The notes: generated by a model from the letters alone, not told the origin. Shown: positions 7,728-53,413, counted from the first letter of the stretch. The stretch: DNA of 64,000 bases from an uncultured Christensenellaceae bacterium (GCA_910588545.1 CAJUOU010000002.1:96228-160227); one strand, 5' to 3'. Made by a program: numbers and translations.

Positions 7728-9929
7728 TTAATAGAACAACTCGATTCCTATGATTTTGTCAATCACATTCCTTACGATTTCCGCATCTGCAGTGGTTATT
7801 TCGCCTTTGTTTATTACCATACTCGCTAGCTTTTTCTCCACACTTAAACTTTCGTATAATGCGTTGTCACTTGCTATTTCTCTCAAGTAGGACACATCGC
7901 TTGCACTTATCCTTCCATCGCCGTTCACATCCCCCAATACGGATAGGTATATCGTTTCGCCGTTTGTCTGTATACACCATCCTGTTCCTATTGCCATCTC
8001 TTTGCCGTTATCTGCAATAGCACTGTTTATGCCACTATCTACTGCTCCGTTTTGATAAATTGTTTTGCCTTTACTATCCGATAGTTGTAAATTGTTTTTA
8101 TCAATACCCAAAGGTGCTAGGTTATTTACAAATTCGTTTACCGAAGTGTTTGGTTTTATATTTCCCAATACATATCTTTCCAACTCGCTGTCATTGTAAC
8201 CGTGTAATTTGTCATTTTCAGTATATGTTTTCCTATAGCCGTTATCCAAATAAACAAAATCATAAATTGATTTTTCTTTCAAATCAAAAATTACTTCCTC
8301 ATTTTTCAAAACAGCAACTTTTTTGCTGTCTTTGGTAAAAAAGTATTTTGACGGATTTTGATTTCCGTTGCCGTAATAAGTATACCCCAATGTGAAAGTT
8401 TTAAATAAATTATAGTTATCATTCAAATCAACTTGAATATGAGCATCTTTACCTTCGCTTGTAAGCAGACCTACTACTTCAACTTTAATATCCTGCGGCA
8501 AACACAAATCTGCATATTCTCCGTTGGATGAGTTGTCTTTTATAACAGTTGCTCCGCTGATTTGCAGCTTGCCTGCGCGAATATTTAGTCCGCCAGCATT
8601 TTCAGTTGCATGATTACCTGTTATAGTAGTATTTTTAATTGCTATGATATCTGCGATTGTAGAAATACCTGCGCCGTATTTTGCAGTGTTCCCCGTGATT
8701 TCGCAATTACTAATGCTCATTAGGGTCATATTATCATCGTTATAAATTCCACCGCCGGATTCTGCACTGCTATTATTTTGAAACACACAATTATTTAACG
8801 TACAAGACGAATTTTGATAATTAAAAATTGCACCTCCATAATTGTTTGCAACATTGCCTACAAAATTGCAGTTTGTAATCGTTGTAATTCCGTTGGAGAA
8901 AATGCCTGCACCGCTCATCTCACTTTCATTTTTATAAAAAACACAATCGTTTATTGTAACTTTTGTATTTTCATGAAATACGCTCAATGCTCCGCCATTT
9001 AATTTTGATGTGTTATTGCTGAAAACAACATTGTTCATTTCAAAATTTATACTGCCTGCAGCCATAATAGCACCTGCTTCAGTAGAAGACTTGTTTCCTA
9101 TTATAATTGAATTGCTAATAGATGTATTGTTCGTACAATGAAATGCTGCACCGCTAGTTTTTGTAGCACAGTTATTCATAAATAAACCGCCATTCACGAT
9201 AAGTTCTCCTGCAGCACAAATCGCACCGCCGGCTGGAGCATAAATATTATCAATTATCATACCACCATTAAATGTCAATTTTGCATTAGATTGAATATAA
9301 ATACCACCGCCTGTATCCATACATGCTCCACCTGTGATTTTACCAAAAGGCAAAGCTCTTAAAGCATTTATTTGAGTTGCTAATGGTTTGTCTTTATTTT
9401 CCTCGTAAGTATTAAACATTAACTCACTGTCGTATTTACTATCTATGATTGTCAAAGTACCTCCATTTAAAACTGTAAAAATAGACCCATAGCTCATTTT
9501 TGTAGTTTGTTTTTTATCAAGCGTATGTCCGTTTAAATCAAATATAATTGTTGCGCCATGTGGCACTGTTATAGAGCCACTGCCATTATAAAAGCCCTTA
9601 CCTACACCAAAAAAATAAGTATCTTCATGTGCAACCCAATCACTGTCAAGCAATACTTTTATTTCTTTGTTATTACCATCAAAGCTTTTTTGTATGGCAC
9701 CACTCCATAAAGCAGCTTTTTCATCTGTTGTACCTGTTAAAATAACATCAGGTGTATAGCCAACATCGGTAGCTTTTTCACTATCTACTATCTCTCCACT
9801 GCTTTGTGTTTTTAAAGTTTCGGTTTGTAAAGCAATGTTTGTAGATGCAAACAAACATCCTACAACTAAAAGACAAGAAATTACTAATACAAAAAATATT
9901 ATTCCAACTTTTTTAATAATCTTTGCCAT
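7728..9929 (-). CDS. secreted surface protein with polymorphic-membrane-protein (Pmp) type beta-helix repeats and a C-terminal dockerin-like module
   Basis: N-terminal signal peptide. Many GGAI/GGAL/SGAG plus FxxN-type repeats (NNYGGAIFNY, LNGGALSVF, ESGGGIYN). C-terminus GDVNGDGRISASDVSYLREIAS matches the dockerin Ca-binding repeat; the second repeat is degenerate. GGAGG SD upstream of the ATG. Confidence 0.8.
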   Translation of the reverse strand: MAKIIKKVGIIFFVLVISCLLVVGCLFASTNIALQTETLKTQSSGEIVDSEKATDVGYTPDVILTGTTDEKAALWSGAIQKSFDGNNKEIKVLLDSDWVAHEDTYFFGVGKGFYNGSGSITVPHGATIIFDLNGHTLDKKQTTKMSYGSIFTVLNGGTLTIIDSKYDSELMFNTYEENKDKPLATQINALRALPFGKITGGACMDTGGGIYIQSNAKLTFNGGMIIDNIYAPAGGAICAAGELIVNGGLFMNNCATKTSGAAFHCTNNTSISNSIIIGNKSSTEAGAIMAAGSINFEMNNVVFSNNTSKLNGGALSVFHENTKVTINDCVFYKNESEMSGAGIFSNGITTITNCNFVGNVANNYGGAIFNYQNSSCTLNNCVFQNNSSAESGGGIYNDDNMTLMSISNCEITGNTAKYGAGISTIADIIAIKNTTITGNHATENAGGLNIRAGKLQISGATVIKDNSSNGEYADLCLPQDIKVEVVGLLTSEGKDAHIQVDLNDNYNLFKTFTLGYTYYGNGNQNPSKYFFTKDSKKVAVLKNEEVIFDLKEKSIYDFVYLDNGYRKTYTENDKLHGYNDSELERYVLGNIKPNTSVNEFVNNLAPLGIDKNNLQLSDSKGKTIYQNGAVDSGINSAIADNGKEMAIGTGWCIQTNGETIYLSVLGDVNGDGRISASDVSYLREIASDNALYESLSVEKKLASMVINKGEITTADAEIVRNVIDKIIGIELFY

Positions 9930-9951
9930 AATAAAACCTCCGTTTTTATCT

Positions 9952-9978
9952 TACATAGAATAAGTATATCTATGTACA
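9952..9978. repeat. left inverted repeat of inverton 1
   Basis: TACATAGAATAAGTATATCTATGTACA. Its reverse complement matches 10100-10126 at 26/27 positions. Contains an internal dyad ACATAGA-N9-TCTATGT. Confidence 0.9.
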
Positions 9979-10057
9979 AAATCGCGATTTTTCGGAAAAG
10001 TTTTTTAAAGTTTTTGTAGCTTTTTTGTAAAGCTATTACAAAATGTTTAATTAAATG

Positions 10058-10087
10058 TTGACAAAAGTTTACTTTTGACCCTATAAT
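10058..10087 (+). promoter_or_regulatory. sigma-A type promoter inside inverton 1
   Basis: TTGACA (10058-10063), 18-nt spacer, TATAAT (10082-10087). Confidence 0.8.
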
Positions 10088-10099
10088 ATACATATAATA

Positions 10100-10126
10100 T
10101 GTACATAGATATACTTATTCCATGTA
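10100..10126. repeat. right inverted repeat of inverton 1
   Basis: TGTACATAGATATACTTATTCCATGTA, the partner of 9952-9978. Confidence 0.9.
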
Positions 10127-10140
10127 CCCAAACTTTACAT

Positions 10141-10233
10141 TAATGGCAAATTTTCAACCCCAATAGTCCCGATTTTTGATAGGATTATTGCAGTGAACGA
10201 TACTTTTTGCCAACTTTAAACTTTACACAAAAA
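10141..10233 (+). other. conserved non-coding module, copy 1 (paralog of 14231-14319)
   Basis: The 40-nt core CCGATTTTTGATAGGATTATTGCAGTGAACGATACTTTTT matches copy 2 at 35/40 positions, at the same distance (~42 nt) from the right IR. Also shares the AAACTTTACA(C/T)AAAAA motif. Confidence 0.7.
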
Positions 10234-10236
10234 GTA

Positions 10237-10274
10237 ACACCCCAAAACACAATGTTTCGGGGTGTATTTTATTT
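10237..10274 (+). terminator. intrinsic terminator ending the OFF-state transcript of inverton 1
   Basis: ACACCCCAAA / TTT(C)GGGGTGT stem followed by ATTTTATTT on the plus strand. Confidence 0.6.
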
Positions 10275-10430
10275 GTATGGCGTATTTAAAATTGTATAAT
10301 TTTAAGAAATTTTACGGCTAAAAAATGTCTATATTAATTTATATTACTACTATCCTTTTCAATTTTTATTTATATATTCTATTTGATAAACAAGTGCAAT
10401 TTTTAATTAAACATATAATTTATAGCAAGC

Positions 10431-10460
10431 AAAAAAGCCATTCTATTGAATGGCTTTTTT
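10431..10460 (-). terminator. bidirectional intrinsic terminator after the 1154-aa adhesin gene
   Basis: GCCATTC/GAATGGC stem flanked by A6 and T6 runs. Confidence 0.7.
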
Positions 10461-10523
10461 AATTAGTTATGCTTTTTACCTTTTTGTTTTTTAGTGTTTG
10501 TTTGCGTTTCGTTTTGGTTGTTT

Positions 10524-13500
10524 TTATTTACGCCTTTTCTTTTTATTCAATTTGCTATTAGGCTTGCTATCTTCATCAATTTTATCAGTGTCCACACCAT
10601 CAGCCGGCGTTATTTGATTTTGTAGCTTTTTAACCTTTTTTGCTTCGCTTTCTTTTAATGCGTAAAATAATATTCTTTCTTGCGGAGCTTCCAACACACT
10701 CAAGTTCAAAACATCATTTTCCTTTATTACAAATGTCCAATCTTTGTAACCTACCTTGTAGTTATTTACTATCGTTCCTCTTACATTTACTACTTCCTTT
10801 GGTTTTATATCCTCGGTATTGGTATTTGTCGCTCCGTTGTTTTCGCTTGCTGCTTGTTGGTTGTTTGCGGCATACTGTGCATAAGGTATTGCTTGTTGTG
10901 GAGTATTTTTATTTTTCTTTACTACTATCAATATTATTATCAACAACAATATAAATATTATCATAAAGATAAATATTGCTATTAATATCCACCACATATA
11001 CGGAGGCATATTTTTTAGTGTTTCTATTACACTATTCATTCCGCTATCCGTATTACCATTACTTCCACCATTCGGTTTGCCGTCAGTTCCGTTGTTATCG
11101 TCCTCGCCGTCGCCACCACTTGGGTTAGGGTTTACCTCTGTTTTAAAGCTGTATGTTTCCGTCTCGTCAACTAGCTCTCCGTTGTATTTTAAAAACACAC
11201 TGCCCTTATACTCATTTTTTACTTTCAAGGAGATTTGGTAATTTGTATCATACTTTAGCGTTGCAGTTGGCAATATTACATTGCCTATTATCTGCCCGTC
11301 TTTTACTTGGTATATTTCGTAATCAAAATACTTTTCTATCTCACTTTTTTCGTCAGATAATAGCGTTGGTCGTTTGTTTCCCGTTCCGTTTTGCCATCCG
11401 CTTATCTCAAACTCCAGCGTTTGTATATCCAAAGTTATTGTATATGTCGTGTTATCTCTATCCTCCCACACTACATTGTCTACTTCTCCGCCATTTGCTG
11501 TGTTTACTCCGTTTTTAAACGCTATTTGTATGCTATACTTTCCTGCTTTTGTAAACTTGTAGTTTTCGTCTACTACATTGCCGTCTACTGTTATTTCAAA
11601 GTAGCTCTTCCAATTTGTCGGCATATTGGCTACAGCACTTAACCCAAAGCCTTCTGCATCAAATATGTTTACTTGGTCTGCTTTTGGCTTTCTTATCTTT
11701 AAGCTTTCTATCTCATAATCAAAGGTATCTTCTCCTACTATCATAAAGTCGTCCAAACCACTTTGCAATCCTACCAACACTTTATATCTTCCTACATTTG
11801 TCGGTGCTCCGCTCAGTGGCGTACCGTCTGCTGTAGTGTAGCTTATTACCAAGTTACTTGCTGTCAATCCTCCGCCTGCTACATTTAGCTCTACAGCTTG
11901 TGACAAACCATTGTATGTAAACTTATTATTCTTTAAGCTTACCTCTACTTTATTTATTACCGACCCTGTTTGGAATACTTCCGATACTGAGTTTTCCTCA
12001 TTTCCATCTACTACAAATATACAGTTAGTGTTGTTAAATCCTATTGTATTTGTCGTAAATATTGCTTGTATATAATATGACTTTATTTCACTTATATCAT
12101 TTTCTGCAAATATTTGCTCTAATGTTACTTCATCAGTCAAATCACTCTTTCTAAAATACTTGTATTCTATTGCATTAGCTAAGTTTTCCGCTACTTGTAA
12201 TCTTGGTATTGGTAGCGTTATATCCCCTATTGTCACATTCTTTTTTGTCCATGATACCGCTACTTTCTTTTTGGTTATCTTCCAATTATGCTTTAGTTGT
12301 GGTATATTTGCTAGTTCCGCACTCGTATATGTTTTGTAGTTAGGGTCACTGCCTGTAAAATCAATTACACTTGCGATATAATCTCCTACTGCGGACTTAG
12401 CATTATTGTCATACACTGCTGTTAAAAAGGACGGTAGTCCAGAGGCTATCTCTACCTTTTGGTTTTGACCATTATATTCAAACTCGCTTTGACTCCACGT
12501 GACTTTGCTAAAATCTATTTCTGCCTTGTTTATGGTTATTTTTATCCATCGGACTGTATCGCTTTCCAAATGGTCGCTATCTGTGGTATCCGCAGTTCCT
12601 CTAAATCTTGGTTTTCTAAAATCTATTACTTCCTGTTTTTCGGTTTCCGTCCAACCGTATTTTAAAGCATCTTGCTCTACCAATGCAATTATTTTATTTG
12701 TCCAACTCTCTTTTATCTCTACCTTTACCCAATACTCTCCTGCGTTTTCGAATGCTTTAGTACTGTCGGGATAAGCAAGTTGAATAAACTCGTTATCTGA
12801 CTCATACAAATTTTTGTCATACCAAGCAGTATTGTTGTTTGTCTTTACAATTTCACTTAATGTTTGTGCTGTTGCATTATATGTTGTCTCCAAATCTTGG
12901 GGATTTTGCACTCCGTTTTCCAAGCCTCTTAGTATTTCGCTTAAATTTACATGTATTGCAGGGCGGACACCTCGCTCATTTGTTATACCCACATTAATCC
13001 ATCTACTAGCATCTGTACAAGTGGAATCAATATCGGAAAAAGCATATCCCCAACTATAATTATTATGATGAGCAGAACGTGTCCATGCTGTAGTAATCCC
13101 TTTTGATGCTATTTGCTCAGGCGACAATTTCCATCCAGATTCTACCAAAGTTCCATTGGAATAGTTTCCGCCAATTTCATAGACACTAGGTATCCAAATA
13201 TAGTCTTTACCCCAGTCGCTATATTTAATACCATCTACTGCATAATCGACTTCATACCCCCCGCCTGTATTAAATTGAGGTTTCCAATCAGGATAGTTGC
13301 TGTTTAGCGCATCATTTCCATAATCATAGGTACTAAACCCAAGTCTCATTGATTGTAGTTGTTGGTATTTAATATACTGCGGCTGAACTAAATATTTTGT
13401 AGCAAAATCGCCTTCGATAAATTGAGACATTTCGTTACTTGACAAAAGAGTATTTCTCAAAGTGCTGCTACTGTACATATTATTACCTTTCGATGCAGAA

Positions 13501-13988
13501 CCGTTTGTATAGAACTTGGACAATTTATACGAATCTGCTAAATATAAAGTTACAACAACATCTTCTTTGGAATAAAAATTTATATCGGTTAAAGTTACAG
13601 ATGTAACTATCCATTGATATCCACCGAGAGTAACAACTAAACCTGTTTCAGAACCAACTTGCGTATTTATAGTAGTAGCATTAACTAAATAAGTTGTTGT
13701 ATCCATATCAGGATTAATTTTATATACATGTTTTTTTACATAATCAGTCGGATTTTCTTTATTAAATAATTTTTCTTTCAAATTTAAAATTGCAAAATTA
13801 TTAAAAGACTTATTAACATTATCATATAATTCAGCACCATTCGCAACTTGAATAGCAGAGCTTGGATTTGATAAAGCCAATGCCTGTTTTGGAAAAATAA
13901 AAATACTTGCAATAAGACTACTAAATAGTACTATCATAAATGTTAACATTACTATAAATAGATACGATTTTTTTATGGTTTTCTTCAT
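10524..13988 (-). CDS. large type-I membrane surface protein/adhesin with DUF6273-like N-terminal domain, MBG-type Ig-like repeats, one C-terminal TM helix and a ~150-aa cytoplasmic tail
   Basis: Signal peptide. GVRPAIHVNL motif (DUF6273-like). MBG-like repeats (FEYNGQNQKVEI...VGDYIASV; FTYNGLSQAVEL...VGRYKVLV). G/N/D-rich linker. TM helix MWWILIAIFIFMIIFILLLIIILIVV followed by KKNKN and a basic tail ending KKKRRK. Confidence 0.75.
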   Translation of the reverse strand: MKKTIKKSYLFIVMLTFMIVLFSSLIASIFIFPKQALALSNPSSAIQVANGAELYDNVNKSFNNFAILNLKEKLFNKENPTDYVKKHVYKINPDMDTTTYLVNATTINTQVGSETGLVVTLGGYQWIVTSVTLTDINFYSKEDVVVTLYLADSYKLSKFYTNGSASKGNNMYSSSTLRNTLLSSNEMSQFIEGDFATKYLVQPQYIKYQQLQSMRLGFSTYDYGNDALNSNYPDWKPQFNTGGGYEVDYAVDGIKYSDWGKDYIWIPSVYEIGGNYSNGTLVESGWKLSPEQIASKGITTAWTRSAHHNNYSWGYAFSDIDSTCTDASRWINVGITNERGVRPAIHVNLSEILRGLENGVQNPQDLETTYNATAQTLSEIVKTNNNTAWYDKNLYESDNEFIQLAYPDSTKAFENAGEYWVKVEIKESWTNKIIALVEQDALKYGWTETEKQEVIDFRKPRFRGTADTTDSDHLESDTVRWIKITINKAEIDFSKVTWSQSEFEYNGQNQKVEIASGLPSFLTAVYDNNAKSAVGDYIASVIDFTGSDPNYKTYTSAELANIPQLKHNWKITKKKVAVSWTKKNVTIGDITLPIPRLQVAENLANAIEYKYFRKSDLTDEVTLEQIFAENDISEIKSYYIQAIFTTNTIGFNNTNCIFVVDGNEENSVSEVFQTGSVINKVEVSLKNNKFTYNGLSQAVELNVAGGGLTASNLVISYTTADGTPLSGAPTNVGRYKVLVGLQSGLDDFMIVGEDTFDYEIESLKIRKPKADQVNIFDAEGFGLSAVANMPTNWKSYFEITVDGNVVDENYKFTKAGKYSIQIAFKNGVNTANGGEVDNVVWEDRDNTTYTITLDIQTLEFEISGWQNGTGNKRPTLLSDEKSEIEKYFDYEIYQVKDGQIIGNVILPTATLKYDTNYQISLKVKNEYKGSVFLKYNGELVDETETYSFKTEVNPNPSGGDGEDDNNGTDGKPNGGSNGNTDSGMNSVIETLKNMPPYMWWILIAIFIFMIIFILLLIIILIVVKKNKNTPQQAIPYAQYAANNQQAASENNGATNTNTEDIKPKEVVNVRGTIVNNYKVGYKDWTFVIKENDVLNLSVLEAPQERILFYALKESEAKKVKKLQNQITPADGVDTDKIDEDSKPNSKLNKKKRRK

Positions 13989-14033
13989 TTTTATTTTCTC
14001 CTAATAGTACACTTTATATCAAATGAAACATTT

Positions 14034-14061
14034 GTACATAGAATATATATAATCTATGTAC
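14034..14061. repeat. left inverted repeat of inverton 2
   Basis: GTACATAGAATATATATAATCTATGTAC. Its reverse complement is identical (28/28) to 14185-14212. Internal dyad ACATAGA-N10-TCTATGT. Confidence 0.95.
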
Positions 14062-14142
14062 ATTTAGGAGCATTTTTCAAGCAATAAAATTAAAGTTTTG
14101 GTATAAATTAGTTAAAGTTCTTACAAAATGATTAGTTTAATA

Positions 14143-14172
14143 TTGACATTACTTTACTTTTAATCTTATAAT
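14143..14172 (+). promoter_or_regulatory. sigma-A type promoter inside inverton 2
   Basis: TTGACA (14143-14148), 18-nt spacer, TATAAT (14167-14172). Confidence 0.8.
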
Positions 14173-14184
14173 ATAACTGAAAAA

Positions 14185-14212
14185 GTACATAGATTATATA
14201 TATTCTATGTAC
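14185..14212. repeat. right inverted repeat of inverton 2
   Basis: GTACATAGATTATATATATTCTATGTAC, the perfect partner of 14034-14061. Confidence 0.95.
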
Positions 14213-14230
14213 TTTTTTTATCCTTTTATT

Positions 14231-14319
14231 TTATGGTAAATTGCAAGTTAATGCCGATTTTTGACGGCATTATTGCAGTGAACGACAATTTTTATATACT
14301 TCAAACTTTACATAAAAAA
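14231..14319 (+). other. conserved non-coding module, copy 2 (paralog of 10141-10233)
   Basis: Core CCGATTTTTGACGGCATTATTGCAGTGAACGACAATTTTT. Hairpin TAATGCCG-AUUUUUGA-CGGCATTA. Followed by CAAACTTTACATAAAAAA. Confidence 0.7.
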
Positions 14320-14320
14320 T

Positions 14321-14358
14321 AGCAACCCGAAAATTATATAAATAAGGTGCTGTTTTTT
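14321..14358 (+). terminator. possible weak terminator ending the OFF-state transcript of inverton 2
   Basis: AGCA(A)CC / GGTGCT short stem with a large loop, followed by GTTTTTT. Confidence 0.35.
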
Positions 14359-14464
14359 ATATTCGAAATTTTCGTTCAATGCAATTAGACATATTTAGGC
14401 TTAAAATTAAACCGAAAACTGCTTTTTAAGCAAAATATTTATACTACAGACGGCTTGGTTAAAT

Positions 14465-14650
14465 AAAAAAATAAGGCATATACCTTAAAGATATATGCCA
14501 AAAACGCAAATAGCGTGTAGTACCGCTCAACCGAAAGAAAACTATTTGAAAACCTCGTTCTTCGAGGTGGGTTAGCTACCTGATACCGCTGTCTTCCCCT
14601 GCCATAACCTAAAAGGTCGAGGGCGTGACATTGAGTACCACAACTCGCAG
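14465..14650 (-). ncRNA. candidate ~185-nt structured small RNA, class not identified (6S-like size and architecture)
   Basis: GC-rich island in an AT-rich intergenic region. TATAAT -10 box on the minus strand (14662-14657). Strong intrinsic terminator (GGCATATA/TATATGCC, 14475-14499, plus U-run). 5' segment GUGGUACUCAA can pair with 3' segment UUGAGCGGUACUAC. Internal hairpin ACCUCG-AAGAA-CGAGGU. Only a 19-codon ORF without an SD. Confidence 0.55.
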
Positions 14651-14808
14651 TCCCTTATTATAAATGTGGTTACAAAATGCAATTTCCTTTCAAATCTTGC
14701 AGTTATCCTACAACAATAGTATAACACATTTGAATGGTCATTACAATACCCTTTTTAAATTTTAATGTAAAAAATTTCCTAAATTAATGTTTAATAAACT
14801 TTACATTT

Positions 14809-14838
14809 AAAAAAGACCTAAAGTTTTACTTTAAGCCT
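14809..14838 (-). terminator. intrinsic terminator after the membrane protein operon
   Basis: 10-bp stem on the minus strand (AGGCUUAAAG/CUUUAGGUCU, with G-U pairs) followed by a U-run. Confidence 0.6.
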
Positions 14839-14853
14839 TTTAATTTATTTATA

Positions 14854-15789
14854 TCAATATACTTCTTTTACGGAATGCTTGCTGTCGATAACAGTTTCGG
14901 CATCTATATAGTATTTTCTTTCGTTCCTACGATAGTAAATTACCAACCCGATGCTTTGATAGAAAATGTTTAAAAAGCTTGTTGCCATAATAAAGCCGAT
15001 ACCAAAAGTAATAAGCCCGAATAACATAATAAACATATAAGACACAAAATTGATTGCAGTAAACAAGCCCCAATTTTTTATTATCAAATCTTTATTAGTC
15101 AATATTGCTTTTTGCAAGCTTTTAAAAATACCAAGTTCCTCATTTATATAAGTTGGTAACCACATTGCAAACACTGAACGTTTTAGTGCAATCAACACCA
15201 TAAAAATCGTTAGGCACAGCGTTAAAGCAAACACAACCGACAACTTACCAACACCCCAAAATGTCAAATAAATCAAACCACACAACAATAGCATGTATGG
15301 GATGTAAATCAATGTATCTACAAAGCTGTAAGCAACTGATTTTTTCAAATGTGCAATTAGGTTTGATGTAAAACCAAATTTGCTATTGCTGTTCATAAAA
15401 TTATTTAACACATCTGCAAGCGGATAATGACCGATTGTGATTAAAAACTTTCCTAAAAAAGTAAATGCAAACAATGCACAAACAGCACCGACTACATTGT
15501 TCCTGTTAGTTGCAAACACTTCCGAAATTTTTGCAAAGTCTTGTCCCAAAATACCAAATGCAGAATTTTGAACAGCTAAATCGCCACCGAACATAGAGCG
15601 GAATGCATCCATACAATGTTCAAAGAAATGCATATTTTGTACGCCTTGTATAATAGGTCGCATAATATAGTACATTGAACTTATAGAAACCGCAGCAAAT
15701 ATAAGCATAACAATAGTTAAATACAGCAAAAATTTATAAAACAAGGAAAACCTCGAAACGGTTATCGAAAAAGAATGTTTTGCTAACAT
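14854..15789 (-). CDS. polytopic integral membrane protein, function unknown
   Basis: Multiple hydrophobic helices and no recognisable motif. Abuts the upstream membrane protein gene with a 1-nt gap. Confidence 0.55.
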   Translation of the reverse strand: MLAKHSFSITVSRFSLFYKFLLYLTIVMLIFAAVSISSMYYIMRPIIQGVQNMHFFEHCMDAFRSMFGGDLAVQNSAFGILGQDFAKISEVFATNRNNVVGAVCALFAFTFLGKFLITIGHYPLADVLNNFMNSNSKFGFTSNLIAHLKKSVAYSFVDTLIYIPYMLLLCGLIYLTFWGVGKLSVVFALTLCLTIFMVLIALKRSVFAMWLPTYINEELGIFKSLQKAILTNKDLIIKNWGLFTAINFVSYMFIMLFGLITFGIGFIMATSFLNIFYQSIGLVIYYRRNERKYYIDAETVIDSKHSVKEVY

Positions 15790-15790
15790 A

Positions 15791-16612
15791 TTAATCCTCC
15801 ACCAACTTTAAATATTTATTTTTAAGGTCTTCCCTATCAATATCTTCGATATCCATATAAGTAGTATACATCAAAGTTATATAATATGAGAAAATATATA
15901 CAAATAAAAATATATTAATTATTTTTCGCCACCAAAAACCATAAGCTGCAAAAACTGCCATTAGGATATAAGGTATTATCGTTGGTATTAAAATAGCAAA
16001 TAACATCCTAAAGAACTTGCCTTTTAATAGTGTTATTGACTCTGCAATAGCTTTTCTTAAATTTAAACCTGTAATTGACATAATAGGCAAAGTCAAACTT
16101 AAAAGCACCATTGCACACAACATTACCAAAAACAATAATACATTTATTGTGATTGTAAGTCCTAAAGCAACTGCTGCTTTTTTGATTGCTTTAACCCATA
16201 AAAAGGTAAACAACGAGCAAACAACAGCGTATAACTCCATAACAAAAATAAACACAAGTACCAATTTAAATACCGGCAAAAAGTTATTGTTTACACGCTT
16301 TAACAAATCTTCTCCCGATAATATACCCCAACGCATGTGTTTAGACTCAAGTCCGCACACTATACTGAAAAATATACTAAAAATCGGCAAAGCAAATAAT
16401 CCCGCAACTACTGATTTCCAATTTATTTCGCTAACCGCAAAAAATACGTCGCCAAAAGTTACAAGCTTACTTTGGTCAAAGTTTACAAATAACTGAATCA
16501 TAGTACATGGCTCTGTAAGCAATCCCATTACAATAGACGGAACTAATGTTGCAAGCGCCAAATACCAAAAATTCTTACGCAGGTACTGAAGAGCAAGTCT
16601 TGAAAATCGCAT
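15791..16612 (-). CDS. polytopic integral membrane protein, function unknown
   Basis: About 6 predicted TM helices. Operonic with 14854-15789. Confidence 0.55.
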   Translation of the reverse strand: MRFSRLALQYLRKNFWYLALATLVPSIVMGLLTEPCTMIQLFVNFDQSKLVTFGDVFFAVSEINWKSVVAGLFALPIFSIFFSIVCGLESKHMRWGILSGEDLLKRVNNNFLPVFKLVLVFIFVMELYAVVCSLFTFLWVKAIKKAAVALGLTITINVLLFLVMLCAMVLLSLTLPIMSITGLNLRKAIAESITLLKGKFFRMLFAILIPTIIPYILMAVFAAYGFWWRKIINIFLFVYIFSYYITLMYTTYMDIEDIDREDLKNKYLKLVED

Positions 16613-26810: not shown

Positions 26811-26828
26811 TTAGTAAATTAAATTTTG

Positions 26829-27017
26829 ATGCTAATAGAGGAGCAATCAGCAATAGTATGTCCGCCAAATGGTATGCAATTACCGACAGGCAGAAAGGGT
26901 ATGATTGCCGAGGTCTTAATCATATTGCAGTGGTTAAGGTTGGGTATAAGGCTAAATCCTTATAACTGTCATCTTAGATGGAGTACTATTATGCTAGCGG
27001 TAAAAATGCTTTTTATT
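26829..27017 (+). promoter_or_regulatory. lysine riboswitch (L-box) aptamer
   Basis: L-box hallmarks AUAGAGGAGC...AGUA, GAAAGGG...UUGCCGAGG and AACUGUCA...UGGAGUACUAU. Lies upstream of lysine/DAP pathway genes. Confidence 0.85.
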
Positions 27018-27044: not shown

Positions 27045-27173
27045 AATATTCAAACATAAATTTCAAGCAAATTATATGTATAAGCAGTTTTACAAGCATG
27101 TTACAATCGGATAAATCAAAAAATTATTTATCCGTTATAAATTAGATTTTTATTTTTATTCATGGAGGCATAT

Positions 27174-28172
27174 ATGAAAAAATTCAATGTTGCAGTTGTT
27201 GGTGCTACCGGTATGGTAGGCAACAAATTTTTGGAAGTTTTAACTGAAAGACAACTTCCTGTGGAAAATTACTATCTTTTTGCTTCAAGCAAAAGTGCGG
27301 GTAAAGTTATCGATTTTATGGGCAAACCTCACACTGTTATCGAACTTACTAACGAAAATATCGCAAAATACCCTGTAGATTTTGCTTTATTCTCTGCAGG
27401 CGGCTCTACTTCTGCAAAATTCGCACCTGAATTTGTAAAATGCGGTGCTATCGTTGTAGATAACTCTAGCCAATGGCGTATGTATGACAATGTTCCGCTA
27501 GTAGTTCCGGAGGTTAATCCCGATGATATAGATTGGAACGAAGGTATTATCGCAAACCCTAACTGTTCTACTATTCAAGCTATGGTTGCCCTAAAACCTC
27601 TTCACGATAAATATACTATCAAACGTATTGTTTATAGTACATACCAAGCTGTATCAGGTGCAGGTGTTGCAGGATATAACGATTTGGTTGAGGGTGTAAA
27701 AGGTGCAGAACCTAAAAAATTCCCATACCCTATCTTTAATAACGTGCTACCTCACATAGACGTATTCTTGCCAAGCGGCTACACTAAAGAAGAAGAAAAA
27801 ATGATGAAAGAAACTCAAAAGATTCTTGACAAAAACATCAAAGTTACAGCTACAACTGTCAGAGTGCCTGTATTAAACAGCCACAGTGAATCTATTAATG
27901 TAGAGTTTGAAAAACCTTGCACTTTGGAAGGTATTTACGATGCTTTGAGAAATGCTGAAAGTGTTATTTTGTATGATGACCCAGCAAACTTGAAATACCC
28001 TATGCCTATTATTTCTAGCGGCCACGACGAAACTTATGTAGGAAGAGTAAGAATTGACGAGACTGTTCCAAGCGGTTGTAACTTATGGGTAGTTGCAGAT
28101 AACATCCGTAAAGGTGCTGCAACAAATGCCGTTCAAATTATGCAAAAATTAATGGAAAAGAAATCTAAATAA
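27174..28172 (+). CDS. asd: aspartate-semialdehyde dehydrogenase
   Basis: VAVVGATGMVG NAD(P)-binding motif and active-site NPNCSTI. Start moved to ATG 27174, downstream of a GGAGG SD (the ORF track starts at 27162). Confidence 0.93.
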   Translation: MKKFNVAVVGATGMVGNKFLEVLTERQLPVENYYLFASSKSAGKVIDFMGKPHTVIELTNENIAKYPVDFALFSAGGSTSAKFAPEFVKCGAIVVDNSSQWRMYDNVPLVVPEVNPDDIDWNEGIIANPNCSTIQAMVALKPLHDKYTIKRIVYSTYQAVSGAGVAGYNDLVEGVKGAEPKKFPYPIFNNVLPHIDVFLPSGYTKEEEKMMKETQKILDKNIKVTATTVRVPVLNSHSESINVEFEKPCTLEGIYDALRNAESVILYDDPANLKYPMPIISSGHDETYVGRVRIDETVPSGCNLWVVADNIRKGAATNAVQIMQKLMEKKSK

Positions 28173-28189
28173 TAATCGGAGGTACTATT

Positions 28190-29068
28190 ATGTTTTCAGG
28201 CGTTGCTACTGCTCTTATCACACCGTTCAACTTTAAGGGTGTGGATTTTGAAGCTTACGGCAGACTAATAGAAGACCAAATTGCAAACGGAATAGATGCT
28301 TTGGTTGTGCTTGGCACAACAGGCGAGGCATCAACAATGTCACATGACGAAAAAGTGGCTACTATCAAATTTGCAATCGAAAAAATAAACAAAAGAGTAC
28401 CTGTTATAGTAGGTACAGGTTCTAACTGCACCGCAACTGCTGTTGAAAACAGTATCGAAGCCGAAAAATTGGGTGCAGACATGTTGCTTGTAGTTACACC
28501 ATACTATAACAAATGCACACAAGAGGGGCTTATTGCGCACTACTCTCAAATAGCAAGTGCAGTAAACACTCCTATCATCGCATACAATGTTCCTGGCAGA
28601 ACGGGCGTAAACATTTTGCCAAAGACAATCAAAGCCCTAGCAAACATTCCTAATATTGTTGCAGTAAAGGAAGCAAGTGGCAACATAAGCCAAATAGCAA
28701 GCGTTGTTGCCGAAGTACGCGGCAGTGATTTTAAAGTTTACAGCGGCGACGATGGTATTATTTTGCCTGTAATGAGCTTAGGAGCAGATGGTTTAATAAG
28801 CGTTGCAAGCAATGTCATCCCTAAACAAATGGTAGATATGGTAAAAGCTGCTAAAGAGGGAGATTTAAAAACAGCTCAAAACTTGTTTTTCAAATATCGT
28901 CCTTTGATGGAAGTAATGTTTTGCGAAACAAATCCTATTCCTGTAAAATTCGCTTGTTCAAAGTTAGGTTACGGTGAAAATTTGCCAAGGTTGCCTTTGA
29001 CACCTATTTCAGAGACAGGAAAAATAAAAGTATTGGACGAAATGTATAACGTCGGATTGATAAAATAA
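28190..29068 (+). CDS. dapA: 4-hydroxy-tetrahydrodipicolinate synthase
   Basis: DapA pattern ALITPF...GTTGE...YNVPGRT...VKEASG. Confidence 0.93.
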   Translation: MFSGVATALITPFNFKGVDFEAYGRLIEDQIANGIDALVVLGTTGEASTMSHDEKVATIKFAIEKINKRVPVIVGTGSNCTATAVENSIEAEKLGADMLLVVTPYYNKCTQEGLIAHYSQIASAVNTPIIAYNVPGRTGVNILPKTIKALANIPNIVAVKEASGNISQIASVVAEVRGSDFKVYSGDDGIILPVMSLGADGLISVASNVIPKQMVDMVKAAKEGDLKTAQNLFFKYRPLMEVMFCETNPIPVKFACSKLGYGENLPRLPLTPISETGKIKVLDEMYNVGLIK

Positions 29069-29091
29069 CAAAATTACTCTCGGAGGAGTTT

Positions 29092-29862
29092 ATGACTAAT
29101 GTATTAATATGGGGTATCGGTGGCAGAATGGGTCGAACTTTGCTTGAATGCCTTAACAAAAACAGCAATGCGAACGCTATAGGCGGTGTAGATAAATTTG
29201 CAAATAAAGCAGATTTTAATATCCCAATCTTCAAAAGTGTTTCCGAAATCAATGTAAAAGCAGACGTAATTATAGATTTTTCACGTGCGGAAGCAATTTA
29301 CGATTTTTTGCCATACGCTAAGGAAAATAAAATTCCGGTTGTGCTATGTACCACAGGTTATAGTGAGCTTGACTTGGACTATATTTCCGAAATGTCAAAA
29401 GAAATACCGCTATTTAAATCCAGCAATATGTCAATAGGTATTAACTTGCTTATCGATTTAGTTAAAAAAGCAACTAACCTTCTTGGCGAAAACTTTGATA
29501 TCGAACTTATCGAGCAACACCATAATGTAAAAGTTGATAGTCCATCGGGCACTGCACTTTCTATCGCAAATGCCATAAATGAAGAAATGAACAACACTTT
29601 AGAATTCAAGTTTGGCAGACACGATAGCAATGAACGACGCAAAAAAAATGAATTGGGTATTCATGCCGTAAGAGGTGGAACAGTTGTCGGCAAACATGAA
29701 GTACTATTTCTTGGAAATGACGAAATTATTACAATTAAACACGAGGCAAGCTCAAAAGCTGTTTTTGCCGAAGGTGCTGTAAAGGCTAGTATTTTTATGA
29801 CAAGCATAAAAACTCCGGGTATTTACAATATGAATGATTTAATTCAATCAACTGAAAATTAA
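29092..29862 (+). CDS. dapB: 4-hydroxy-tetrahydrodipicolinate reductase
   Basis: DapB signature ELIEQHHNVKVDSPSGTA. Confidence 0.9.
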   Translation: MTNVLIWGIGGRMGRTLLECLNKNSNANAIGGVDKFANKADFNIPIFKSVSEINVKADVIIDFSRAEAIYDFLPYAKENKIPVVLCTTGYSELDLDYISEMSKEIPLFKSSNMSIGINLLIDLVKKATNLLGENFDIELIEQHHNVKVDSPSGTALSIANAINEEMNNTLEFKFGRHDSNERRKKNELGIHAVRGGTVVGKHEVLFLGNDEIITIKHEASSKAVFAEGAVKASIFMTSIKTPGIYNMNDLIQSTEN

Positions 29863-49887: not shown

Positions 49888-50826
49888 CTATATAATTTGC
49901 TTACTTTGCAAAACAGCTTTTATGTTGCTGCTGCGTACAGCATAACCTATACCCGCTACTATATGTTCGTTTGAATCCGTACCGTCAACCCTTCGTAAGT
50001 AGTTGATTCCAACAAATTCTCCCGCAGTATTAAATAACATGTTGTTTGTCAAAACATAATTATCATTTTTATCTATTGCCTCAAAGCCGTGTTTAAAATC
50101 CAACCCCGTTACATAAGTATCGTAATCCGACTTGTTGAAATAGCCTTGTGTTGTGAATGAAGCTGCCATCATTTCCGCAGGTATTCCGTTAGGATGATTA
50201 CTCATAATGTCCACACCTGTCATCATGGATTTTGAAGAAACCAATACAGGAATAGTCTTAAAATATTCCGCAGTAGGGATATCCAAAGAAGAACTGTTGT
50301 TATACACCCTGCTGTCAGGCACAATAACTTCCACCCCAAAAATCATTTGCCCAAGTTTGACTATGTCGGTAGTATCGTTATTTTTTGCAAATTTGACAGG
50401 CTTTAGTTTTACACTGTTTTTGTCCTTAAGCGTTAATACATTAAAACCATAATCATTATTCCTTGCAAAATTGTTATCTTCCGTCTTGTAGACAAAGTCA
50501 AATCTGCCTTTTGTATTATAAACTCTGCCCTTATAATAGTTTATCTCAGGCAAATTCAGTTTATTTAACGGAATCGTTTGCCTTGGAACAATTATTTTAT
50601 CTTCGGAAATAGCAACTCCCATAGAATAATAATATGTAAAATTTCCCGGAACAACTTCCACCACAACACAGGAAGACAAAACATCTTCCATAGCATCGGA
50701 AATTACGACACTTCCGATGCCGTCCAAATTATAGTTTCTCTCCTCCGGTTTGCACCCCGTAAAGGCAAGTAAAGCTAGCGTTAATAAAATCGCTAGCGAT
50801 ACAAACAATTTAAACTTAATTTTCAT
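49888..50826 (-). CDS. lipoprotein, degenerate (catalytically inactive) paralog of the adjacent S1 protease
   Basis: Lipobox AFTGC. C-terminal FNTAGEFVGINYLR...IGYAVRSSNIKAVL aligns with FDASGKLAGIVTLR...GIAYAMPASTVKDYV of the neighbour. The GNSGG Ser and NNHV His motifs are absent. Confidence 0.55.
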   Translation of the reverse strand: MKIKFKLFVSLAILLTLALLAFTGCKPEERNYNLDGIGSVVISDAMEDVLSSCVVVEVVPGNFTYYYSMGVAISEDKIIVPRQTIPLNKLNLPEINYYKGRVYNTKGRFDFVYKTEDNNFARNNDYGFNVLTLKDKNSVKLKPVKFAKNNDTTDIVKLGQMIFGVEVIVPDSRVYNNSSSLDIPTAEYFKTIPVLVSSKSMMTGVDIMSNHPNGIPAEMMAASFTTQGYFNKSDYDTYVTGLDFKHGFEAIDKNDNYVLTNNMLFNTAGEFVGINYLRRVDGTDSNEHIVAGIGYAVRSSNIKAVLQSKQII

Positions 50827-51724
50827 TTATCAATGCCTTTATATCGCTGTATAGTTTATCTGCGATATGTAATTTCCAAATTTCCGTATGAGTGGCAGTC
50901 CCTCCAATAGGAATGTTTTGCAACTCTGACAAACTTTCCACTTCAATAAAATCTTTACAAGTATAAAGCTCTGTAGAAGAAGAATAGTCTGCGTAATTTC
51001 CATCCCTCTTTGCTTTTGGGAAAATCTTTTCCACTAATTTGTCGCCACGAATGTAGTAAACAATACCTTCGGTATTTAATGTTCCTATTTTCATAGGTCC
51101 TTTGCAATCAGGGTCTTGCCTCATGCTTATGTAATCTTGTTTTATTTGCAACCTGTCATCCGCAACATCCGTATACGGCCAAATAACTAAATTGCGGTTA
51201 GCAAGAAGTCCCGTATCTTCCTTTGACATAGGGATAACTGCCGTACCGTATTTGTTCATAACGGATAATGCCCACAATGCTACATTAAGCGGTTTGTCGC
51301 CGCAATTATAAAAAGCATGTTCAACAGTTACGTCGCCATTTTCTGTCATAGTAACCTTTATAGTTTTTCCGATACCGGTAACTTTATCGTTTCCGCTAAA
51401 AAATACAGCACCATTATCAATCAAGGTCACATCTACCTTATTATGGTCGGGTTGATAGCTGGACTCATCCTCAGGAGATTTCCAAAGTCTGTGACCGCCA
51501 TAAATTTTCCAAACTTCGCCTTTTTTATAGTTTTTGTCAAGAAATTCGCTTGGACGCTTATTTAATCCAAGGTCATCGGTGTGCATCATATTATCTTCAT
51601 CCGTTGTTCCGTAATAAATAATACGCGGACCTAAATCAGTAGTAACACGTAGCACAACAACACCGTTTGAAATTTCCAAACAATTACCAAAAGTGCTGAA
51701 ATTTACATTTTTAATAGTAACCAT
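50816..51724 (-). CDS. hypothetical cytoplasmic protein (beta-sandwich, possibly mutarotase-like)
   Basis: No diagnostic motif recognised. 11-nt overlap with the downstream lipoprotein gene. Confidence 0.35.
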   Translation of the reverse strand: MVTIKNVNFSTFGNCLEISNGVVVLRVTTDLGPRIIYYGTTDEDNMMHTDDLGLNKRPSEFLDKNYKKGEVWKIYGGHRLWKSPEDESSYQPDHNKVDVTLIDNGAVFFSGNDKVTGIGKTIKVTMTENGDVTVEHAFYNCGDKPLNVALWALSVMNKYGTAVIPMSKEDTGLLANRNLVIWPYTDVADDRLQIKQDYISMRQDPDCKGPMKIGTLNTEGIVYYIRGDKLVEKIFPKAKRDGNYADYSSSTELYTCKDFIEVESLSELQNIPIGGTATHTEIWKLHIADKLYSDIKALINEN

Positions 51725-51815
51725 ATATAACCCCTATCTTTTTCATATCTATTTATTAATTTTTAAATAAATATATCACAATAATATAACTAATTTAAAA
51801 ATAGATATGTTCAAA

Positions 51816-52025: not shown

Positions 52026-52236
52026 ACTTTCTCCTATTAATCTAAAAATATTAATACTTAGATGCCCCATCATTTAAAGTCATTTAGCGGCATTTACCAA
52101 ATAAATTTGTCTTTCAGATAAACTCATTTGCTATATGCAACCACCCTTTAAGATAACAATTTTTAAATTTATTATATAATATTATAATACAATATAATTG
52201 TAGCACAAATATTTTCTTATTTCAATATGTTTACAA

Positions 52237-52899
52237 TTATTTTTGTAAAAATTTCTCATTTTTTTTGTCGTCTATCAACAGCAAGTCATTTAAAACGCTG
52301 TCTATGTTTATTATTTTTTTACTGCTATTCAAGCAGATTCTCACTTCGTTGATTACATCTATCATTTGATAACGAAAATTGGTAAGAATCCTTTTGATAA
52401 ACGGAAAAGCCGAGTAAATACTACCCGCGCAATTTGTAACTGCATAAGCAATAACGCCTGCAATATCTGTGTACTGCATTCCTTCTTCCACACTATCGTA
52501 ATCAATGCCGTAACATCTTCCGTCTTTTATAATAAAATTATCAAAAGAAATATCTTTTAAAATATAATTATCCGCAAGCGTATAAAAGATTTGCAAAAAA
52601 ATCGAAAGTTCGTTGGCAAGTCTTATAAGTCCGTCAACATTATCGCTCATAGTATACAATAAAAATTTGTCTTTTAGCAAATCTCCCTCGATATACTCGT
52701 AAATGATAAAGTCTTCTCCCATTTCTATTATTTTGGGAGCATAGCCGGAAACCGAAAGTTGATTTAATATAGTAGTTTCAATATTCAAAGTTTTTATGTC
52801 TTGATATTTTTTTACTACTACAGACATACCTTTTTCATTTTTTGCAAGACATACTTTATTACTTGTACGACTTAATTGTTTTATTATTTCTAGATTCAT
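52237..52899 (-). CDS. small protein-kinase-like fold protein (CotS/choline-kinase/RIO-like)
   Basis: Lys region VVVKKY, catalytic-loop-like DISFDNFII and a DFG-equivalent GIDYDS. Start moved to ATG 52899 (GGGGA SD). The upstream part of the ORF-track ORF looks non-coding. Confidence 0.5.
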   Translation of the reverse strand: MNLEIIKQLSRTSNKVCLAKNEKGMSVVVKKYQDIKTLNIETTILNQLSVSGYAPKIIEMGEDFIIYEYIEGDLLKDKFLLYTMSDNVDGLIRLANELSIFLQIFYTLADNYILKDISFDNFIIKDGRCYGIDYDSVEEGMQYTDIAGVIAYAVTNCAGSIYSAFPFIKRILTNFRYQMIDVINEVRICLNSSKKIINIDSVLNDLLLIDDKKNEKFLQK

Positions 52900-53101
52900 A
52901 AGTTCCCCATACTGAATTAGCGTAAAAAATTTTATTTCCAACGCAATCCGCACTATGTAGTATTCTATCAAATATTTTTTAGTATAGCAAGCAAAAAGGC
53001 TATCAATTTTTAAAAATAAACGCATTTTAGCTAAAAATATCGCGAATAATTGATAAATAATAGTAAATACTAATATAAACAAAAGATTATTAGGAGGATT
53101 T

Positions 53102-53413
53102 ATGAAAGGTTTAAAATGCACTACAAGCAACTGCGAGTTTAATGAGGGTTTTCACTGTAAAGCCGGCGTTGTAAACATCGATAAAAGAGGCAACTGTATT
53201 ACAAGAATAAAAAGAGAAAACGGAGTAATCGAACAAGAATTCGTCAATATGGAAGTTTCAAGCGAATTTAACTATTCAGATAACGAGGATACTTTAATAA
53301 AGTGCAATAGCACAGACTGCAGTTACAACAAATGTTTCAAATGTGCTGCCGATTTCATCAATGTAGGAGAAAAATTGCTTTCTACCAAATGCAAAACAAG
53401 AACTAAAGACTAA
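53102..53413 (+). CDS. DUF1540-domain protein (two Cys-rich repeats)
   Basis: Repeats CTTSNCEFNEGFHCKAGVVNI and CNSTDCSYNKCFKCAADFINV. AGGAGG SD. Confidence 0.75.
   Translation: MKGLKCTTSNCEFNEGFHCKAGVVNIDKRGNCITRIKRENGVIEQEFVNMEVSSEFNYSDNEDTLIKCNSTDCSYNKCFKCAADFINVGEKLLSTKCKTRTKD

Follow-up and report, generated by a model that had tools for sequence, protein, structure and literature searches.

A 123-bp promoter segment between lox-like sites, upstream of a large surface-protein gene, is found in both orientations in near-identical wild strains

In the 64,000-nucleotide stretch of DNA analyzed here (the window; uncultured Christensenellaceae bacterium, GCA_910588545.1 CAJUOU010000002.1:96228-160227), the element at positions 14034-14212, hereafter switch 2, is a real DNA switch: the segment between its two arms was found both ways in near-identical wild strains. 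It is very probably a promoter inverton, in which a tyrosine recombinase encoded outside the window flips a 123-bp segment bearing the only strong promoter by means of two 28-bp lox-like sites. The original prediction, made from the sequence alone, had described an invertible promoter, OFF in this sequence, for the minus-strand gene of a 1154-aa protein, and the existence of both orientations in natural variants agrees with it. The features of switch 2 and of its gene are the following.

10524-13988, minus strand: gene of the 1154-aa surface protein, ATG at 13988
13998-14002, minus strand: ribosome-binding site AGGAG, 9 nt 5' of the ATG
14034-14061, unstranded: gene-proximal arm and recombination site, made of half-site GTACATAGA (14034-14042), 10-nt spacer ATATATATAA (14043-14052) and half-site TCTATGTAC (14053-14061)
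14062-14184, unstranded: invertible segment of 123 bp, exact reverse complement in contig L006, inverted relative to the flanks in L145
14121-14127: TTACAAA box of the interior, conserved in the family (34-module alignment)
14143-14172, plus strand: sigma-70-type promoter TTGACA-18-TATAAT, 12/12 consensus, facing the distal flank
14185-14212, unstranded: gene-distal arm and recombination site, perfect inverted copy of 14034-14061, spacer TTATATATAT

The proximal arm, GTACATAGAATATATATAATCTATGTAC, is the perfect reverse complement of the distal arm, and the sequence and coordinates of these 28-bp repeats and of the 123-bp interior are as originally predicted. When extended by the flanks, the repeat covers 32 nt at 97% identity. 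Among inverted repeats within a spacing of 1.5 kb, the arms of switch 2 are the longest of the whole window. Furthermore, 64-kb sequences simulated 30 times under a first-order Markov model had longest perfect inverted repeats (gap 20-300) of 12-16 nt, against the 28 nt observed. The flanking sequences, ...AAACATTT and TTTTTTTA..., are devoid of a target-site duplication. Another inverted repeat of the window, imperfect (34 nt, 79%), was noticed at 51781-51814 and 52147-52180, its arms 332 nt apart; it is intergenic between the ORFs 50816-51724 and 52237-53130, both without a Pfam family, and its sequence is unrelated to the switch sites.

The promoter of the interior, whose TTGACA (14143-14148) and TATAAT (14167-14172) are 18 nt apart, scored 12/12 on the plus strand. 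As had been stated, it points away from the ATG at 13988, and no further consensus promoter stands between the left repeat and this ATG: in the region 9500-15200, just one other 12/12 promoter was found, and it lies inside the neighbouring switch 1. Since the promoter is on the plus strand and directed away from the minus-strand gene of the 1154-aa protein, switch 2 is OFF in the window. The distance from the ATG to the proximal arm is 46 nt. In the ON contig L006 the -10 box ends 12 nt from this arm, which makes the leader about 78-80 nt long after inversion, close to the 80 nt initially proposed. A further property, absent from the original prediction, is that the arm itself is near-palindromic, with two 9-nt half-sites around the 10-nt spacer. 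The succession of a half-site, a spacer and an inverted half-site is the layout of tyrosine-recombinase core sites such as loxP or FRT, and by their layout the arms of switch 2 resemble sites of this type.

Evidence for inversion was obtained from natural strains. An exact-match contig look-up with the 311-aa protein encoded nearby (14854-15789 on the minus strand) returned nine loci, 98.4-99.8% identical to the window. The interior of one of them, L006 (ENA ERZ14864644), is the exact reverse complement of the interior of L002 (ERZ14864025) and of the window, with arms and flanks unchanged. Comparison of the L006 and L002 flanks gave no mismatch over 11,608 positions on one side and 2 mismatches over 3,327 on the other, hence 2 bases for about 15 kb in all; once flipped, the L006 interior is 100% identical to that of L002. 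The two contigs are essentially one strain, found in two samples in opposite orientations. In addition, JGI metagenomes were scanned with the 28-nt arm as query. Of the loci found, L145, which shares 96.6% identity with the window, is in the ON form; so are three at orthologous positions, L147, L151 and L146. A fourth, L150, is OFF. Both orientations, and not a single one throughout, are found in public contigs between unchanged flanks. De Bruijn assemblers with k-mers longer than 28 nt cannot make the opposite junction when it lacks supporting reads, and thus, for k > 28 nt, the ON forms are real molecules.

Several assemblies are interrupted at the switch. The contig L008 stops precisely at the outer boundary of the proximal arm, L009 breaks off within the spacer of the distal arm, L146 and L151 begin at or in the switch, and L148 is a fold-back contig around it. 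Such contig breaks at the arms would imply mixed orientations inside one sample.

Next, the distribution of the site was examined with the pattern GTACATAGA-N(9-10)-TCTATGTAC, in a scan of one genome per species that returned at least 117 stretches. Among the matches listed, nearly all are in uncultured gut Clostridia, and the isolated single sites in unrelated taxa are compatible with chance. The hosts are labelled by NCBI as 'uncultured Christensenella sp.', Clostridia or Eubacteriales, and they include MAGs from mouse (MGBC) and rabbit (Lapin). One mouse-gut genome, MGBC121002, has at least 27 site-bearing loci, at least 17 of them with a complete pair, and many of its other sites are at contig ends. 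Among the matches listed, at least 20 further contig ends fall within about 100 nt of a site. From the start of one site to that of its partner, the distance in the family is typically about 150 bp, and nearly all pairs enclose a TTGACA/TATAAT-like promoter; the start of the gene is located 20-100 nt from one arm. When 34 modules were aligned with their promoters in a common direction, TTGACA and TATAAT appeared as columns conserved at 90% or more. Also conserved across these modules are a ribosome-binding site and ATG by the proximal arm, both arms, the TTACAAA box, TATAATAT, and a gene-distal flank of about 140 nt, named D2.

A palindromic operator pair could mimic an inverted repeat, and the decisive feature is therefore the inversion of the non-palindromic spacer. 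Among the matches listed, the spacers of the two partner arms are identical as inverted copies in 52 of the 68 family pairs and as direct copies in none of the 68; these pairs contain 32 distinct spacers. The spacers of the window's two switches differ from each other. The general rule that a spacer is the unique address of its switch was nevertheless rejected, as two spacers of MGBC121002 are each common to at least seven switches. A scan of viral contigs gave just two isolated single sites, and the sites are thus not tied to phages.

Orientation could be scored in 36 assembled modules: in 32 the promoter faces D2 (OFF) and in 4 it faces the gene (ON). This suggests either a repertoire kept mostly OFF or a directional bias of recombination, and it could also fit a D2-facing orientation with a function of its own.

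As to the enzyme, Pfam scans of the gene-like ORFs of the window (some 40, out of 51 that reach 150 aa) revealed no recombinase domain. In related genomes, loci retrieved by the site pattern alone proved to contain an orthologous tyrosine recombinase of about 303 aa: it stands within about 60 bp of the site in at least about 13 loci from more than 10 genomes, and farther away, up to about 2 kb (L082), in three further loci. These site-associated recombinases share 50-91% identity and a common HxLRHT motif, and their homologues carry PF14659 and PF00589. The family remains below every NCBIfam cut-off. It scored 21.9 bits against NF007371 (tyrosine-type DNA invertase, FimB/E-type; cut-off 222), and 63, 51 and 74 bits against the XerC, XerD and XerA equivalogs (cut-offs 335, 330 and 220, respectively). 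Membership of the XerC/XerD-dif and FimB/FimE types was rejected on these scores, which are far under the model cut-offs. The nearest solved structure is that of the Tn1549 integrase (6EN0, E = 2e-19).

In more distant relatives the recombinase gene directly abuts a switch. In the window's closer relatives it is stand-alone, without an adjacent site, in a conserved arrangement in which PI-PLC on the opposite strand is followed by the recombinase and then by Metallophos, at the following positions.

8001-8927 in L143 and L144: stand-alone recombinase gene
8001-8918 in L137: stand-alone recombinase gene
5668-6600 in L127: stand-alone recombinase gene

Such a stand-alone gene would fit a 'master' recombinase acting in trans. 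The contexts of the homologues P0008, P0007, P0006 and P0146 showed the same PI-PLC/recombinase/Metallophos order, and none of the four could be tied to the species of the window. The prevalence of P0146 is similar (610 versus 564 index blocks), which is only suggestive as a pointer to the recombinase of that species. From the association of site and recombinase in related loci, we infer that a protein of this family would flip switch 2.

The region on the gene-distal side of switch 2 comprises the following features.

14213-14360, plus strand: D2 flank, with a T-run, boxes CCGATTTTTGA, ATTATTGCA and AAACTTTACA, then a hairpin with A/T tracts at 14312-14360
10128-10265: D2 of switch 1
14516-14708, minus strand: candidate 6S (SsrS) RNA gene, between the gene of the 311-aa protein and D2, with a terminator at 14475-14499 (minus strand)

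The D2 of switch 2 is 80% identical to 10164-10247, in the D2 of switch 1. By nhmmer, D2 was found to adjoin the distal site in about 50 loci (for example L116, 4701-4808), and it is on the gene-distal side wherever the neighbouring gene is known. Its inner part contains the boxes CCCCCGATTTTTGA and ATTATTGCA, and CTTTACA twice. Its outer hairpin covaries, with compensatory changes in 7 of 7 pairs, and on the gene strand it is followed by a T-tract and the invariant TGTAAAGT; covariation and T-tract together make it read as an intrinsic terminator against transcription coming from upstream. A TGCAATAAT-like extended -10 box, facing the gene, is also present in D2, and its -35 region is not conserved. 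No Rfam family matched the switch or the D2 flank.

Farther upstream of the module, the minus strand of 14516-14708 matched Rfam RF00013 with 40 bits (cut-off 46.4; E = 2e-6) over all 187 model positions, and the region folds with z = -5.2. It is probably a 6S RNA gene, to judge from this match. Another RNA element of the window, a lysine riboswitch (RF00168, 88 bits), was detected at 26828-26996 on the plus strand, upstream of asd/dapA/dapB (27162-29862).

In the transcript of the OFF state, the distal arm and its A5/T7 flanks would form a hairpin of -16 kcal/mol followed by a U-run (z = -6.1), and the OFF transcript may well terminate there. A T-run past the distal arm is found in most family members. 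It is missing in switch 1, where the arm hairpin is weak (-5.7 kcal/mol), and in the copies of MGBC104832, so that this terminator feature is not universal.

These observations bear on an alternative that we consider unlikely, namely that the switch is bifunctional and toggles between two outputs, the D2-facing orientation driving a conserved non-coding transcript over D2. The conservation of D2 beside the distal arm in about 50 loci, without a change of side, and the promoters facing it in 32 of the 36 scorable modules would be expected in this case. Yet D2 does not contain a conserved ORF (the 29-codon ORF of switch 2 is kept neither in switch 1 nor in L003), and the transcript should be stopped at about 40 nt by the arm hairpin and T-run that, in switch 2 as in most copies, come immediately after the start. 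The plus strand of 14225-14365 folds well (z = -4.1), but the minus strand does so equally (z = -4.0); moreover, the first plus-strand hairpin is broken in close relatives such as L145 and L003, and the T-tract of the covarying far-end hairpin is on the gene strand, which makes it face the opposite way.

Still less probable, to a degree that leaves it little room, is a rare strain polymorphism fixed after an old recombination, with no active and reversible phase variation. It is true that the data are assemblies and that each of them gives a single orientation. However, the ON and OFF contigs compared above are 2 bases apart in about 15 kb and have identical interiors once one of them is flipped, ON forms are found in several lineages, and contig breaks are located at the arms in many assemblies. 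Furthermore, perfect arms and spacers matched in 52 of 68 pairs are expected only under continuing recombination, and a conserved recombinase accompanies the sites.

Finally, the arms are each near-palindromic and the element is multi-copy, but there is practically no chance that they are independent palindromic operators or a terminator pair around a fixed promoter, or the terminal inverted repeats of a miniature transposable element, since the interior occurs in both orientations between unchanged flanks, the non-palindromic spacers are inverted within pairs and never direct, the copies keep a fixed distance from a gene start and have D2 opposite to it, and, for a transposable element, the associated enzyme is a tyrosine recombinase and not a transposase. 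A miniature inverted-repeat transposable element was rejected in particular because a target-site duplication is absent and the copies are always 20-100 nt upstream of a gene start.

Returning to the promoter inverton, we propose the following mechanism. A site-specific tyrosine recombinase, encoded beyond the window, would recombine the two 28-bp lox-like sites. In the OFF form, which is that of the window, the promoter would fire into the distal arm, away from the gene of the 1154-aa protein, and the distal-arm hairpin and T-run would probably end this outward transcript once it is about 40 nt long. In the ON form, which is that of L006, transcription would start a few nt before the proximal arm, cross this arm, which is not followed by a T-run, and continue through a leader of about 78 nt and the AGGAG to the ATG of the same gene. 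The covarying terminator at the end of D2 would insulate the module from upstream transcription, that of the probable 6S RNA gene. The consensus and the conservation of the promoter suggest that the orientation would set the expression of the 1154-aa protein, and flipping is likely to be frequent and reversible within a population.

The product of the gene facing the proximal arm has the features of a large surface protein. The 1154-aa protein begins with a hydrophobic signal/anchor helix and an ALA-LS cleavage-like motif, continues with an ectodomain of about 900 aa and a G/N/D-rich linker, and ends with a TM helix (about 996-1026) and a disordered lysine-rich tail. In the AlphaFold model the mean pLDDT is 70, with values of 85-93 across most of residues 50-650. 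The best PDB matches of this model are Ig-like beta-sandwich chains (the grappling-hook protein GhpA, contactins, the adhesin SiiE); the overall TM-scores are low, as may be expected from a flexible multi-domain rod. The model would make of the ectodomain a string of beta-sandwich domains, the fold match being a generic tandem Ig-like one. The label 'MBG-repeat' given by the original prediction is not borne out: the protein matched no Pfam or NCBIfam family even at E <= 1, and its homologues carry no precomputed Pfam domain. A look-up for records of exactly this protein sequence returned none. Its 44 homologues all belong to uncultured Clostridia, at identities from 97% down to 40%, a fast divergence such as might be expected of an exposed variable antigen.

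Among the matches listed, the genes of the switch family fall into two main groups: those of 27 large N-terminally anchored proteins, among them paralogues of both the 1154-aa and the 733-aa protein of the window, and those of 15 prepilin-type proteins with the N-terminus KKGFTLAELLIVVAII. In rabbit-gut Clostridia MAGs, the switch was observed upstream of small prepilin-type genes (KKGFTLAELLIVVAII) and not of large anchored proteins. The loci with a switch at a prepilin gene are given below.

Prepilin-gene switch loci: L012, L016, L019, L041, L047, L064, L065, L072, L074, L077, L091, L096, L101

The window itself contains a second member of the family, switch 1, with the following features.

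9951-10127, unstranded: switch 1, paralogous to switch 2, with the same half-sites, 9-nt spacers ATAAGTATA and TATACTTAT, and a promoter at 10058-10087 (plus strand)
7728-9929, minus strand: gene of the 733-aa protein under switch 1

A second copy of the design had been invoked in the original prediction as an argument for a real switch. The paralogue 4 kb away is indeed real, and is one of many, but it had been called better preserved, which is wrong: its arms, upstream of the 733-aa gene, are of 27 nt with one mismatch, against the perfect 28-bp arms of switch 2. The 733-aa protein weakly matched a dockerin domain as well as Chlamydia polymorphic-membrane-protein repeats, and it showed no BLASTP similarity to the 1154-aa protein.

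Rearrangements around these switches were also observed. In the switch-1 orthologue of L004 (about 15685-15817), a clearly different interior is enclosed by the same arms, and it looks like a cassette replacement and not like point divergence. In MGBC145026, a relative at 93% identity, the 3.9-kb contig L020 (1-3936) extends from a switch-1-type distal site to a switch-2-type proximal site; the whole stretch between switches 1 and 2 was assembled separately. In L003 (11560-12330), in four similar contigs and in L149 (1-400), the switch-2 cassette is placed between D2 and an 80%-identical D2', which bears the same 10-nt spacer in the L003-type contigs. Next to it, L003-type strains have unrelated genes (IMPDH, GH3) in place of the gene of the 1154-aa protein. 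The L003-type junction suggests that two different switches have recombined with each other, or that the strain was rearranged.

Invertible promoters are a main route of surface variation in gut bacteria, well studied in Bacteroides and little in Clostridia. Like the element described here, fimS of E. coli has its promoter in a short invertible segment; it is flipped by the tyrosine recombinases FimB/FimE, as a tyrosine recombinase probably flips switch 2, and it controls a surface adhesin organelle. The fimS segment has 314 bp and 9-bp repeats, its recombinase genes are adjacent, and it depends on IHF and Lrp. The recombinase family described here differs, with 22 bits against the cut-off of 222 of the tyrosine-type DNA invertase model. 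The likeness to Cre/loxP and FLP/FRT concerns the architecture of the site alone: two inverted half-sites around a short spacer whose asymmetry sets the orientation and whose identity is kept between partners, inverted sites leading to inversion. In contrast to these systems, the half-sites are here of 9 nt and the spacer of 9-10 nt, as delimited in this analysis, and the element is a chromosomal regulatory one, not a plasmid or phage resolution system. In the cwpV switch of C. difficile, one orientation forms a terminator, through which the switch acts. There the invertible segment separates a fixed promoter from the gene, whereas the promoter is here inside the segment.

In C. difficile, the tyrosine recombinase RecV acts on 7 sites with mostly unrelated repeats (PMC5903667), and the RecV-dependent switches include cwpV/Cdi1, flgB/Cdi4 and cmrRST/Cdi6 (PMC5903667, PMC2784873), the cwpV switch being treated in PMC2784873. 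Common to both cases are a host among the Firmicutes/Clostridia, a 'master' tyrosine recombinase (here a putative one) acting in trans on several short segments, and a large surface protein, which is CwpV in C. difficile; in contrast to the unrelated RecV repeats, dozens of copies follow here one consensus. For Bacteroides fragilis, PMC5903667 cites the master recombinase Mpi, a serine recombinase, as flipping at least 13 regions in trans, at capsular polysaccharide and other surface loci. The resemblance is close in that many short promoter segments with one repeat consensus are scattered over the genome upstream of surface loci, the recombinase is encoded elsewhere, as is proposed for switch 2, and most loci can be OFF. 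The two systems differ by the enzyme, since a tyrosine recombinase is associated with the sites here; by the Clostridia host, with TTGACA/TATAAT promoters and lox-like 9 + 9/10 + 9 palindromes; and by the outputs, which are polysaccharide operons in B. fragilis and single large proteins or pilins here.

Large catalogues of predicted invertons have already been published (PMC11602134, PMC11892184), and PMC11892184 puts the median at 3 invertons per genome for the Clostridia-like group of a defined human gut community. Full-text searches of the literature gave no paper pairing Christensenellaceae or Christensenellales with invertons, and the site sequence was met in unrelated primer lists alone. 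The type of switch is well known, and a single one is expected biology; this example and the large family to which it belongs have not been described before. The family is distinctive by its host lineage, its uniform lox-like site, a copy number that is high for Clostridia, and its conserved insulated flank.

A wider reading, quite possible but put forward only tentatively, is that of a genome-wide 'switchboard' in prevalent uncultured gut Clostridia. Dozens of near-identical modules (terminator, D2, site, promoter, site) would be served by one stand-alone tyrosine recombinase, each gating one fast-evolving surface protein or pilin, most of them OFF. The boxes of D2 would serve as a new accessory element, for the control of recombination or in the OFF transcript. 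Because of the L003-type junction, this reading also includes recombination between same-spacer sites of different loci, which would reshuffle the chromosome.

In conclusion, switch 2 is a verified switch and belongs to a uniform family, of which a single related genome has at least 27 loci, 17 or more of them complete; the lineage is known from metagenomes only, and the family would gate large, rapidly diverging surface proteins. The site consensus and the recombinase family provide a handle for measuring ON and OFF states in existing metagenomes and an entry to testing a compact lox-like inversion system, and they could account for the fragmented assemblies of these genomes. The family, its recombinase and the D2 flank merit follow-up.
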